A stretch of DNA of 32,486 nucleotides, taken from a virus. Taxonomy: Duplodnaviria > Caudoviricetes. The stretch's first letter is position 1. Every line of letters starts with the position of its first letter. The notes below the pieces were generated by a model. That model did no database searches. It was not told the DNA's origin and saw only the letters and a list, made by a program, of their open reading frames with translations. The stretch is from IMG/VR virus record IMGVR_UViG_3300042318_000332, positions 1 to 32,486 of that record, one strand, 5' to 3'. Positions 5,522 to 20,475 of the stretch are shown here, piece after piece. The position numbers and the translations under genes are program-made.

Positions 5522-5577
5522 ATTGTACACATCAGGTAGCGTGTCTCAGGTACGACACGCCGTAGGTGTGTTACTCT
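5522..5577. promoter_or_regulatory. back-to-back promoters, each GACACGC-N11-TAnnnT
   Basis: Rightward: GACACGC 5554-5560 + TACTCT 5572-5577. Leftward: GACACGC 5545-5539 + TACAAT 5527-5522. Confidence 0.65.
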
Positions 5578-5582
5578 CAGGT

Positions 5583-6140
5583 ATGACAACCATCGCAGCT
5601 TTAGAAGGTATTGATTACGCGGTCTTCGTAGCTGACTCTCAGATAACTGAAGACAATCTCGTGACCTTAGCAACGAGCACGCCTAAAATCGTTGAGGTGG
5701 GTAAGTTCATCATCGGTATCTCAGGTGACACCAGACCAGGTGATATCCTTTCGTATAACTGGAAACCGCCACTCTATCGTGGCGAAGAACCGGTGCAGTT
5801 TATGGGACGTAAAGTAATCCCAAGCATTATGAGTACCTTTACAGATAATAACTACGAGTGGAACAAGGTGGACAAAGATGGTGGCTTCGATTATCTCATT
5901 GCTTTTAACGGCAATATCTTCCGTATTGCTTGTGATCTCTCTTTTTTCCAAGCAGATCACGGAACGTACGGCATTGGTTCTGGTGGGCAGCTCGCTCTTG
6001 GCTACCTGTATTCAGTTCGCAAACCTGATATGGAGTTAGCCTACGCCAAGCGACACGCCAAGAAAGCCGTAGAGATTGCATCAATGCTTGACGCTAATAC
6101 GGGTAAGCCTATACAGTTGGTAGTCCAAGAACGACTATAG
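5583..6140 (+). CDS. proteasome beta/HslV-like Ntn-hydrolase (Thr protease)
   Basis: Start MTTIAA exposes an N-terminal Thr; ADSQ, PKI and GIGSGG motifs; ATG is 5 nt after the -10, so probably leaderless. Confidence 0.8.
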   Translation: MTTIAALEGIDYAVFVADSQITEDNLVTLATSTPKIVEVGKFIIGISGDTRPGDILSYNWKPPLYRGEEPVQFMGRKVIPSIMSTFTDNNYEWNKVDKDGGFDYLIAFNGNIFRIACDLSFFQADHGTYGIGSGGQLALGYLYSVRKPDMELAYAKRHAKKAVEIASMLDANTGKPIQLVVQERL

Positions 6141-14702: not shown

Positions 14703-15122
14703 TCAGTACCAGCCGACTCGGTCTGAGTGTCTTTTAGCGCCGCAGAAACTGCCTCGATAGCGATGTTCAACGTATCGTACACCGCGAAGGATTTGTAATT
14801 CAGGTTGGCTACTACGTTCTCCAAGGAGCTGAGCAATTCCGTAAGCTGTTGATCTTGGGTTGTCTGCGAGGTGGTCAAGCCTGCTCTCACGGGTCCATAA
14901 GGCGATAGCACACTTGATTTGGTTGTCGTTGTAACCGAGTGCGTTGAGGAAACTAACTGTAAGTGCCTTGTTCTCACGCTTTTCCTCCATTGTTGCCTTT
15001 GTTCTTGCGACTACGCTTAGGTCTTTTGGCAGCTCTACTACGCTTTGGTCCGGAGCGAACGCCCATAGTAACGCTAACACGGGTATTACTAGCAACCCAA
15101 TTCTTACCTTTTGTTTGGTCAT
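14703..15122 (-). CDS. membrane-anchored lytic transglycosylase-like (lysozyme fold) protein
   Basis: N-terminal TM/signal; LWTRES...NPRSTAYGIAQLL...YVEHRY. Confidence 0.75.
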   Translation of the reverse strand: MTKQKVRIGLLVIPVLALLWAFAPDQSVVELPKDLSVVARTKATMEEKRENKALTVSFLNALGYNDNQIKCAIALWTRESRLDHLADNPRSTAYGIAQLLGERSSQPELQILRGVRYVEHRYRGSFCGAKRHSDRVGWY

Positions 15123-17302: not shown

Positions 17303-17323
17303 CTTGTAACCCTTTCTCTATCT

Positions 17324-17375
17324 GACCTCGTCAGCACCCGCCTTACGGGTGGACACCCTTGCGGGTGTTTCGGTC
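17324..17375 (-). ncRNA. type II hammerhead ribozyme
   Basis: Minus strand GACC-GAAA-CACCC(GCAA)GGGUG-UC^-CACCCG(UAAGG)CGGGUG-CUGACGA-GGUC: complete core and three paired stems. Confidence 0.93.
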
Positions 17376-17854: not shown

Positions 17855-17883
17855 AATATATATGCGGGACTATACCGTGTCAA
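17855..17883 (-). promoter_or_regulatory. strong sigmaA promoter for the leftward (probably early) operon
   Basis: TTGACA (17883-17878)-N17-TATATT (17860-17855). Confidence 0.85.
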
Positions 17884-18016
17884 TAGATAACAAGCATTTA
17901 TAGGTCACAGTTTCATAACGATTGGCAGGGGATTTGCTGGGCGTTTCCTGAGAATGTAACAGGGTTACGGGTTGCAGATGGTTGAATGTTCAACTAGTTA
18001 CAGCCGATACAATAGC

Positions 18017-18030
18017 CGAACACCTGTTCG
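18017..18030. promoter_or_regulatory. LexA SOS box (Gram-positive/actinobacterial type)
   Basis: CGAAC-acct-GTTCG. Confidence 0.75.
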
Positions 18031-18090
18031 AATAGCGGTTACTTAATTGCTGAGGATTAAGTGAGAGGTCTGCCGTGGTGGTAGTCCGCC

Positions 18091-18104
18091 CGAACATCCG
18101 TTCG
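18091..18104. promoter_or_regulatory. second LexA SOS box
   Basis: CGAAC-atcc-GTTCG. Confidence 0.75.
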
Positions 18105-18110
18105 AAACAG

Positions 18111-18155
18111 TTATCCACAACCTTATCCACAGCCTGTGCATAGCCCTGTGGACAA
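18111..18155. promoter_or_regulatory. cluster of four DnaA boxes
   Basis: TTATCCACA 18111-18119 and 18123-18131; reverse CTATGCACA 18135-18143 (degenerate) and TTGTCCACA 18147-18155; 12-bp period. Confidence 0.85.
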
Positions 18156-18281
18156 CGGTCTGCCCCGCAAAACGGACCCCCGTATGCTTAATCCGCTGGC
18201 GTATATACCTGTACTCCCCAAATAAATATTTTTGCTAAAGTCAAAGCTACAAATATGGCCTCTGACCTGCGGTTTTACTAA

Positions 18282-18297
18282 TGTGATTAACATCACA
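18282..18297. promoter_or_regulatory. CRP/GlxR box
   Basis: Perfect TGTGA-N6-TCACA. Confidence 0.7.
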
Positions 18298-18342
18298 AAT
18301 AAAAAGCGGGAAACCGTTAAAATTTCCTGCCTTATATATAGT

Positions 18343-18477
18343 AGGGGAGCAAAGCGGGGGTAGTGTGCTTTGCGACCCGTGGCCGCCTCTTACGAGGCCC
18401 CTAGGCCGAGTACTGACTTACCCCTCAGTTCGCTGTGGCTCCCTCGGGCGCTAAGCCCGACGCTAGCGGCGCTTTTT
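18343..18477. ncRNA. candidate multi-stem structured element upstream of the terminase
   Basis: GC-rich island with at least five stems; function and strand not established. Confidence 0.5.
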
Positions 18478-18609
18478 AATCGGGATAGGTCTATCATTAA
18501 CCAGGTAATGATCATTTCCGAACCAGGTATAAATAAAATTCGATTCCGGCCCGTCCCCAAATTGTAAAAAAATTTTTAACGCGCTCATCGCGCTCTACAA
18601 GGAGGATAC

Positions 18610-20475
18610 GTGGCAGATAATTCAGCTGACATTGCCAAGCGTATTATCCTTGGCTGTGTAGCAGAGGGTATGACTATTGAGCAGGCTACCGCCTCTGCTG
18701 GCAAATCCATCAAGACCTACGAGTATTATCGTCGTACAGATAAGATCTTTGCAGATAAAGTAGACCGAACCCGCCTAGGTCTTAAGGACAAGCAGTTTGC
18801 CGGTGGCGATGTTCACGACATCTCATTCCAAGAGTTTCGCCAGCGATTCCTTCACAGCCGTACCTTCCCCCATCAGCAGAACATTGTAGATGTAATCGAA
18901 GGCCGTGAACCAGCTTGGCTACATCCTTCAATGAAGTTTGAAAAGGGTGTGGCAAATAACCGCATCCTAATCAATATCCCTCCCAACCACGCCAAGTCAA
19001 TCACTATTACAGTTGATTACGTTACCTGGATGGTTGCCCAGAATCCTAACTTTAGAGTATTGATTGTTTCCCAGACGCAGCGTTTAGCTGCCGACTTTCT
19101 CTACGCCATCAAGCAACGCCTGACTCATCCTATGTATGAAGACCTCCAGAGCGCTTATGCTGCTGGCGTAGGGTTTAACTCTAAGTCTGCTTCCTGGCAG
19201 GCTACCCGTGTCACCTTTGGTGATGAGCTACGTGAATCTAGCGAAAAAGATCCTAATATCGAAGCCGTCGGTATCGGAGGCCAGATCTACGGTAAGCGTG
19301 CTGATATGATTATTGTAGATGACGCGGTGACTTTATCTAACGCCAACGACTTTGAGCGACAGATTAAGTGGCTTACCCAGGATGTGCGTTCTCGTTTGAA
19401 CCCTACAGGTAAACTTATTATTATTGGAACCCGCGTTGCTTCCGTTGACTTGTACCGCGAGCTACGCCAAGAAGATAGATACCCAGGTGGATTAGTTCCT
19501 TGGACATATCTTGCTATGCCAGCGCTTTTAACAGCAGATGAGAACCCTGATAAGTGGGAAACCCTTTGGCCTTTATCAGATGCTCCCTTTGATGGACAAG
19601 AAGATTCAGATAAAAACGAAGAAGGACTCTACCCTCGCTGGTCTGGTCGTAACTTGTACAACGAACGCCAAGCAATGGACCCTTCTACCTGGGCTTTGGT
19701 TTATCAGCAACAGGATATATCTGAAAACTCAGCCTTTGACCCGGTATGTGTTCGCGGCTCCATTGATGGTATGCGAAAGTCTGGTGCATTAGTTGCAGGC
19801 CATCCCGGACACCCACGAGATTTATCAGGTTTCTCAATTATCTGCGGGCTAGACCCTGCAATGATTGGTGATACCGCAGCTGTTTGTTATGCGATAGATC
19901 GAAACTCGAACAAGAGGTACATAGTAGATGCTATTAAAATTAGTAGACCGTCTCCTGCCGACATTCGCGAGCTTATATTTAATTGGACTTCCCTATACGG
20001 CCCGTCAGAGTGGATCGTTGAACGTAATGCGTTCCAGTCTTTCCTCACACAAGACGAAGGAATCAAGCAACACCTTGCATCCAGAGGAGTAATCTTACGT
20101 GAACACCACACAGGAAACAACAAGTGGGACGCAGGATTCGGTGTTGCCAGTATGTCCACTTTGTTTGGAACGAAGCAGCACGATGGTAAGCACCATAGAG
20201 ACAACCTTATCCATCTTCCTAGCGATCAAACAGAAAATGTCAAGGCGCTCATCGAGCAGTTAATTACCTGGACCCCTACTACTAAGGGTAAGACCGATAT
20301 GGTAATGGCTCTTTGGTTCTGTGAGATCCGCGCAAGAGAGATGCTTAACTATGGTAAGTACGCATCCCACCATATGAAAAACCCATTCCTCTCACGAGGA
20401 GAACTCAGTAAGCGAGTAGTTGTCAATATAGATGAACTCATCGCACAAAACCAACAAAATCAACACTTCGTCTAA
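18610..20475 (+). CDS. terL: terminase large subunit with N-terminal HTH extension
   Basis: Walker A variant IPPNHAKS, Walker B MIIVDD, IIGTR coupling motif, nuclease GLDPA and TDMVMA; GTG start after AAGGAGG. Confidence 0.9.
   Translation: MADNSADIAKRIILGCVAEGMTIEQATASAGKSIKTYEYYRRTDKIFADKVDRTRLGLKDKQFAGGDVHDISFQEFRQRFLHSRTFPHQQNIVDVIEGREPAWLHPSMKFEKGVANNRILINIPPNHAKSITITVDYVTWMVAQNPNFRVLIVSQTQRLAADFLYAIKQRLTHPMYEDLQSAYAAGVGFNSKSASWQATRVTFGDELRESSEKDPNIEAVGIGGQIYGKRADMIIVDDAVTLSNANDFERQIKWLTQDVRSRLNPTGKLIIIGTRVASVDLYRELRQEDRYPGGLVPWTYLAMPALLTADENPDKWETLWPLSDAPFDGQEDSDKNEEGLYPRWSGRNLYNERQAMDPSTWALVYQQQDISENSAFDPVCVRGSIDGMRKSGALVAGHPGHPRDLSGFSIICGLDPAMIGDTAAVCYAIDRNSNKRYIVDAIKISRPSPADIRELIFNWTSLYGPSEWIVERNAFQSFLTQDEGIKQHLASRGVILREHHTGNNKWDAGFGVASMSTLFGTKQHDGKHHRDNLIHLPSDQTENVKALIEQLITWTPTTKGKTDMVMALWFCEIRAREMLNYGKYASHHMKNPFLSRGELSKRVVVNIDELIAQNQQNQHFV

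Follow-up and report, generated by a model that had tools for sequence, protein, structure and literature searches.

Predicted sites for several host regulators in a non-coding junction, likely a genome end, of a phage related to Planktophila and Streptomyces cluster BF phages

The window (the whole stretch of DNA analysed, 32,486 bp) is a contig that encodes WhiB, a sigma factor, a helicase and a primase of its own, a terminase, and a capsid protein. The terminase is 46% identical to that of the Planktophila phages E7/F5 and 42% to that of Streptomyces cluster BF phages, and by sequence the window is a phage that is kin to the Planktophila phages and the cluster BF podophages. The host of E7/F5 is 'Ca. 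Planktophila' LanE-43, and according to the accessible part of the source, its annotation contains DnaA, LexA, MtrA, and Crp (PMC10202952). The public sequencing runs that bear the stretch are lake metagenomes in nearly all cases. Hence, as the terminase kin E7/F5 infect LanE-43 and the runs come almost entirely from lakes, we infer a Nanopelagicales bacterium as the host of the window phage.

The original observation, that no integrase or repressor is visible, holds for the 39 ORFs scanned, which also lack an antirepressor, although at 32.5 kb the contig does not reach the length of complete relatives (39-40 kb). In related phage records, a family A polymerase was found in 0/10 and a family C polymerase in 0/9, and the annotation of WRightOn contains neither. 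The phage likely borrows the host replisome. Elsewhere in the window, an HslV/proteasome-family peptidase gene lies at 5523-6140, and a Pro/Thr-coding repeat with a 12-bp period lies at 924-1085 near tail-fibre and glycosyltransferase genes. A Hammerhead type II-like match (17316-17375, minus strand; 35.7 bits compared with a gathering score of 37, E 3.4e-5) sits just upstream of a 112-aa early gene.

The features of the junction are listed in Table 1. The site array lies between the opposed early (leftward) and putative late promoters, the latter being assigned by its position, as the consensus scan did not find it. Early-type promoters are present in 90 of 188 relatives compared with 15-24 in shuffles. 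The sites had been described as mostly lying apart from any evident promoter. This needs qualification because the stretch is not promoter-free: the 11/12 sigma-70-type promoter lies 20 bp from the MtrA-like site. Behind the array, the RNA-like element is predicted to form several stems. Its closing helix, AGGGG/CCCCU, is kept in 42-50 of 50 relatives' sequences, and the inner helices show mixed pair types among these 50 relatives. Rfam gave no match for this element, which may serve as a leader or as a small RNA of the packaging type.

Table 1 Features of the junction and its flanks (positions within the window)
Feature	Position	Strand	Remark
Early promoter, sigma-70-type, TTGACA-17-TATATT	17855-17883	-	11/12 match; -35 at 17883, -10 ending 17855; faces leftward small genes
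MtrA/GlnR-type direct repeat, 11-bp period	17904-17919	+	Likely activator site of the early promoter
TCCTGAGAAT element (CTGAGAA)	17946-17955	+	Formerly called MprA-like; kept in some relatives, mostly phased
GTAAC-N3-GTTAC palindrome	17956-17968		In 1/188 relatives
GTTGAA-N2-TTCAAC palindrome	17981-17994		Likely operator of a host MarR-family regulator
LexA (SOS) box 1	18017-18030		Motif match
ACTTAAT-N8-ATTAAGT palindrome	18041-18062		In 1/188 relatives
Inferred direct terminal repeat, about 130 bp	18084-18212		Boundary motifs homologous to those of BF repeats
LexA (SOS) box 2	18091-18104		Motif match
DnaA boxes (four: two forward, two reverse)	18111-18155		Starts at 18111, 18123, 18135, 18147
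18-bp oriC element	18260-18277	+	Identical to a host-like oriC segment
CRP/GlxR-type box	18282-18297		Single perfect copy in the window
Putative late promoter	18303-18342	+	Conserved block before the terminase; anchor for relatives
Structured RNA-like leader, conserved	18343-18480	+	Starts right after the putative late promoter; outside the site array
Terminase large subunit	18610-20475	+	phrog_38

Every motif that had been listed for 17900-18335 is present at its coordinates, and the array is far above the chance level, which was estimated from 100 shuffles of the window per motif. Beyond the two LexA boxes, the 32.5 kb contain none (shuffle mean 0.02), and two boxes were reached in 0/100 shuffles. 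The DnaA boxes follow an exact 12-bp period, with two mismatches in the box at 18135, and a tandem pair was likewise found in 0/100 shuffles. A perfect CRP box arose in 6/100 shuffles and is weak evidence when taken alone. Rfam gave nothing for the site array. Some of the initial assignments changed. The call of an MprA-like site at 17953-17937 is better read as the TCCTGAGAAT element, which also occurs in a host promoter. Three palindromes had been left unassigned: the one at 17981 matches a host operator, and those at 17956 and 18041, each private to the window phage, were rejected as likely due to chance.

For comparison, relatives were collected by a terminase search (best 80 of 598) and by pattern searches (flanks for the first 80 of each). 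After removal of near-duplicates, 188 of 263 sufficiently flanked loci were left. Counts of the CRP box and of CTGACCTGC are inflated in sets with motif-fetched loci; hence, a second set of 143 of 191 loci is the non-redundant set minus those fetched by CRP or LexA patterns. Shuffled controls, run on a set of 102 relatives, gave means of 0.0-0.9 loci for the LexA, DnaA, CRP, MarR, and MtrA-type sites.

The MtrA-type site is found in 20 of the 143 relatives and lies 18-21 bp from the edge of the early -35 in all 13 measurable cases. Sites of this kind are present in 5/5 host-like genomes. The label is based on a 17-bp direct-repeat consensus in the accessible part of its source (PMC13189361), and it is uncertain whether the binder would be MtrA or a GlnR-type protein, as both use similar repeats.

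The TCCTGAGAAT element occurs in 17/143 relatives, mostly 31, 41, 52, or 63 bp from the early -35, and is thus helically phased. Host genomes contain 3-6 copies compared with 0-1 for the control, several of them intragenic. In one host promoter, which precedes a likely lytic transglycosylase gene (named by eye), the element is joined with a CTGACC motif and a DnaA box. The early gene at 14703-15122 (minus strand) resembles a host gene of the lytic-transglycosylase type (L782 1611-2249) by eye, unaligned, and the promoter of that host gene has the same site modules as the phage array.

The CRP-like box is the only one of these sites that is near-universal (135/143 relatives at ≤1 mismatch, 61 perfect). 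Its arms are almost invariant and its spacer is free. The distance to the late TATA is 35-36 or 50-51 bp in 172 of 185 cases. As the MtrA-like and CRP sites keep fixed distances to promoter elements, part of the array is probably ordinary promoter control. To this extent the original interpretation had to be narrowed, as it had for the rarity of the LexA boxes and the two private palindromes.

The LexA boxes behave differently from the sites at fixed spacing. They occur in only 5/143 relatives, at 36-285 bp from the early -35. Both are absent in the closest relatives (terminase identity 97-99%), which keep the DnaA array, and where box 2 lies, L003/L004, which have the DnaA array in common with the window, hold a 13-nt block instead. 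A promoter scan, which could miss a weak promoter, showed no overlap of the LexA boxes with a lytic or antirepressor promoter. A LexA-controlled lytic switch of the GIL01 or 186 type was considered and rejected: the SOS motif matches, but in the window the boxes are 133 and 207 bp away from the early -35, and this distance varies in relatives. The MarR-type palindrome is present in 10/143 relatives, and also in the cultured phages E7/F5, and its distance to the early -35 ranges from 58 to 122 bp.

DnaA boxes are found in 58/143 relatives, at two alternative places for the pair that are about 450 bp apart: the left place alone in 26, the right place alone in 30, both in 2, and neither in 85. 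Thus, 28/143 have them at the place of the array and 32/143 just before the first late gene. Box spacing is 12 bp in 45 of 72 pairs. In a clade that includes L022, L038, L049, and L059, the two boxes stand about 30 and 18 nt ahead of the first late gene, directly before the ribosome-binding site of this gene or of the terminase rather than within the inferred repeat. Where the boxes are absent, their slot is filled by TAGACA, GGCAGAC, or GGACA.

In a tree built from the conserved right part (167 rows), the LexA boxes are scattered, with 9 changes for 11 taxa (shuffled mean 10.8). Scattered, too, are the MarR-type (18 changes for 22 taxa) and MtrA-type sites (21 for 26). With 5 changes for 32 taxa, the DnaA pair at the downstream place is bound to clades, and the either/or site patterns follow them in part. 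One strain switches sequence at 18080, and the scatter could stem from recombination of the left module, not from independent gains. The expectation that relatives would shuffle the sites was borne out in that some sites are kept and others are gained or lost at variable places.

Beyond these relatives, LexA and DnaA boxes ≤30 bp apart were found together in 90 viral stretches that fall into 52 sequence clusters. Mixed LexA-DnaA(-CRP) arrays recur in these clusters, some with more than 10 sites, and some will be due to chance. From 30 of the 52 clusters, 96 flanking ORFs were scanned; most are unannotated, two loci adjoin a terminase, and one lies near a portal gene. Dense runs of LexA, DnaA, and CRP sites were seen in the viral contigs L264, L255, L207, L205, and L232, the first of which combines eight DnaA-like sites with five CRP-like and four LexA-like ones over about 260 bp.

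On the host side, we used complete 1.4-1.5-Mb rhodopsin-bearing genomes. These are called host-like, not proven host, because the LexA of genome G163 resembles that of LanE-43 (by eye). The array sites correspond to real host elements in the case of the SOS motif, the MarR-type operator, and the oriC segment. The SOS motif lies upstream of lexA in 7/7 freshwater actinobacterial loci (5/5 host-like and two other genomes), and a 14-mer identical to LexA box 1 is found in 3/5 host-like genomes. Each host genome has 4-5 perfect SOS, 8-15 perfect DnaA, and 0-1 perfect CRP sites, although the SOS counts do not always exceed the reversed control (4 vs 6 in G204).

The extended GTTGAA palindrome is present in 26/31 host-family genomes, with the control near 0. 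Its context was examined in one genome, G163, which has 14 TTGAA-N2-TTCAA sites; four of them are extended and lie at the starts of marR, pirin, ligB, and doxX, and the other ten lie inside ORFs. As the extended sites precede marR itself as well as the other three genes, GTTGAA-N2-TTCAAC is likely the operator of a MarR-family regulator. Genomes of the G001 genus, probably another lineage than that of the host, have the SOS box, and the MarR-type palindrome occurs in 2/21 of them. For the MarR-type site, a resemblance to the Corynebacterium RosR operator could not be corroborated.

The element at 18260-18277 matches the oriC of G224 exactly over 18 bp, and variants of it occur in 8/8 host-like oriCs; the element is present in 37/143 relatives. 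A second oriC motif, ATGTCCG (TGTCC), is present in 6/8 host-like oriCs. In the phages, the slot at 18260 holds a CTGACC-type element in 54 cases, TGTCC in 64, both in 0, and neither in 15 (n = 133). Exact phage-host oriC matches run to 18-30 nt. The host-like oriCs (L750, L752, L762-L767) carry CTGACC-type and ATGTCCG motifs in addition to their DnaA boxes and trios. In 31/31 genomes of the G163 family, the CRP core GTGA-N6-TCAC is rarer than its reversed control; hence, the phage CRP box would rank among the best sites in the cell.

The position of the array suggests a genome end. Exact terminal repeats are present in three BF records, with lengths of 264, 275, and 253 bp, and for a BF phage 253-bp repeats and podovirus morphology have been described (PMC9753666). 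The BF repeats open at GTCCC past a G-rich run and close about 40 nt beyond GACCC...TTAA, and in 3/3 BF phages a CRP-like box lies 28 bp beyond the repeat. As these landmarks recur in the window at 18084, 18175, and 18282, a terminal repeat with the extent given in Table 1 is predicted. With loose patterns, the left boundary motif was found in 132/188 and the right one in 116/188 relatives, and for the 64 relatives with both motifs, the predicted repeat has a median length of 130 (quartiles 128-132). The boundary motifs precede the terminase, as BF ends do, and the GC skew flips its sign at the predicted boundary across the 188 relatives.

Of the contig starts, 14/45 lie in a 46-nt interval near the left boundary (scan p = 0.0002, with the interval set post hoc and one contig outside it counted twice). 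In the new data alone, 3/17 fall there (p = 0.07), and there is also a cluster of right ends at an unrelated, non-terminal place. Assembled contigs aligned to the stretch had no ends at the predicted terminus, and the presence of other strains accounts equally well for depth steps near 18087-18170 in such contigs. When the early-promoter pattern was used to look for right genome ends, most of the contigs retrieved were unrelated, and none from the family ended nearby. Given the homology to BF ends, the tight repeat length, and the clustering of contig starts, we consider it likely that the array region is a phage genome terminus, in agreement with the original prediction.

These results can be combined as follows. 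The array lies in the non-coding junction between the opposed early and late gene blocks of a freshwater actinophage, and this junction likely holds a terminal repeat of about 130 bp. The MtrA-type, the phased TCCTGAGAAT, and the CRP sites probably feed the host state into early and late transcription. The floating DnaA, LexA, and MarR-type sites would work wherever they are placed; they need no geometry, which fits decoys or tethers. They could load host proteins onto the genome ends without firing an origin, and they could titrate host proteins once phage DNA exceeds the few host sites. With assumed copy numbers, some tens of phage genomes would outnumber the perfect sites of the host. A phage lacking its own polymerase might gain from less host re-initiation and from more SOS recombination and repair. 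Our leading explanation, in which we place about even confidence, is that the fixed sites regulate promoters and that the floating sites act as position-independent decoys or tethers. DnaA and LexA boxes are accessory, as most relatives manage without them. Titration cannot be the core function because LexA boxes and perfect DnaA boxes are missing in so many relatives, and a few sites per genome may not suffice for it.

A different role for the same sites would be mechanical. Host proteins bound at the physical ends may act on the DNA during entry or in its packaged state by tethering it, ratcheting it in, or shaping it, and titration would then be incidental. A model of this kind has been proposed for the DnaA boxes of T5. 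The geometry is consistent with this idea: the first DnaA box lies 15-20 bp past the left boundary motif in 32/34 relatives, the DnaA pairs are 3 bp apart as in T5, the CRP box mostly keeps 103-115 bp to the right boundary motif in both clades and follows the repeat by 28 bp in BF phages, and TAGACA, GGCAGAC, and GGACA take over the DnaA slot when the boxes are missing. However, in one clade the DnaA pair lies about 380 bp inside the end of the predicted repeat, before the first late gene, and the T5 model, too, was derived by comparing sequences and is a proposal. Since RecBCD-type nucleases displace bound proteins, a role as plain protection of the ends is unlikely. We regard such an end scaffold as possible but doubtful.

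The array might also consist of two ordinary promoters with passengers. Here, only the MtrA-type and CRP sites would act, and the LexA, MarR, and DnaA sites would be captured host fragments that drift in a recombination-prone spacer. The patchy distribution in relatives and the strain swaps at the boundary fit with drift, and the length of the exact host-oriC matches suggests capture. Drifting fragments, however, would not explain why the LexA boxes of 11 lineages have perfect arms and differing spacers, nor why mixed arrays recur across the viral clusters, and the flanks of the LexA and MarR sites are unlike host flanks (by eye). We consider passengers unlikely for these reasons.

A DnaA-dependent phage origin assembled from host oriC parts was also weighed, since the window combines an AT-rich tract and two oriC motifs with clustered DnaA boxes, related phages show no family A or C polymerase, and the cumulative GC skew reaches a local minimum close to 17500. 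The pattern of the DnaA trio was read off host loci. A trio run follows a box in 0/188 phage regions compared with 8/8 host oriCs, and these missing unwinding trios argue against an origin. Furthermore, an origin should be kept in all relatives, and 85/143 have no perfect DnaA box, the skew tracks gene direction, and the phage encodes its own helicase and primase. The reading is thus highly improbable, and an ordinary origin does not explain the array. That phage proteins (terminase N-terminus, WhiB, or sigma) bind the CRP-like palindrome and the CTGACC/TGTCC slot, as conservation next to the terminus from lake to Streptomyces phages and the near absence of perfect CRP sites in host-like genomes might suggest, is likewise highly improbable, given that depletion of the CRP core is expected if a host protein binds it tightly and that both slot motifs occur in host oriC.

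Our preferred reading, promoter control by the fixed sites with decoys or tethers at floating sites, can be carried further, albeit tentatively. The genome ends might be a swappable decoy bank that combines a disarmed copy of the host origin with LexA, MarR, and Crp operators. Amplified DNA of this kind would reprogram a tiny, low-copy host without any phage protein, with initiation blocked and the SOS and redox regulons switched on, and unrelated phage families would have converged on it. We think that this wider version is rather unlikely. Five or more types of host sites, origin fragments among them, swapped among lineages at phage ends would amount to a protein-free layer of takeover or sensing, in phages of a numerically dominant freshwater bacterial order. 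Cultured material exists with LanE-43, with E7/F5, which have CRP and MarR-type sites, and with the BF phages, which have CRP boxes. The comparison also yields cis-elements of streamlined host bacteria: two oriC motifs that are conserved among them and what is likely a MarR operator.

Among known systems, datA and similar titration loci are clusters of DnaA boxes without an unwinding element that reside in single copy on the chromosome. The window array, in contrast, lies on an amplifying phage genome, and its titration effect is putative. The BF podophages share with the window the terminase-first order, the boundary motifs, CRP-like boxes inside the left end, and leftward genes at the right end. 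They differ in that their repeats measure 253-275 bp and their ends have no perfect DnaA or LexA box, whereas the window has both; their announcement does not discuss these motifs (PMC9753666).

The injection-stop region of T5, in the part of the preprint that is available, has DnaA boxes in non-coding terminal-repeat DNA (10.1101/866236). T5 and the window are alike in the 3-bp distance within DnaA pairs, in the location in terminal-repeat DNA (predicted for the window), and in that a role other than an origin is argued for. As far as this source describes T5, it has about eight boxes in paired inverted repeats that are kept in all members, a large repeat, and two-step injection with the genes A1/A2. 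The window has four boxes and a small predicted repeat, its boxes are patchy and present in under half of the relatives, unlike in T5 members, and the DnaA sites are mixed with LexA, CRP, MarR-type, and MtrA-type sites and oriC motifs.

Host-regulator sites have also been described singly in other phages. In the accessible part of the respective report, CtrA sites in Alphaproteobacteria phages are linked to "lytic deferment," with promoter tuning proposed for Caulobacter phages, and LexA control in GIL01, 186, and CTX and Spo0A in phi29 are cited (PMC9437464); the DnaA boxes of T5 are a further case (10.1101/866236). In a literature search with most subscription papers outside its scope, the mixed array and the TGACCTGC motif were not found described. 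The CtrA phages resemble the window in having sites for a host master regulator in terminal repeats or intergenic gaps and in having oligotrophic hosts. As described there, they use one regulator each and tie it to promoters, whereas the window combines at least five types of sites, several of which are promoter-free and swapped among lineages. Thus, host-regulator sites in phage terminal DNA have been described before, and a swappable multi-regulator mosaic with origin fragments did not turn up in the literature searched.
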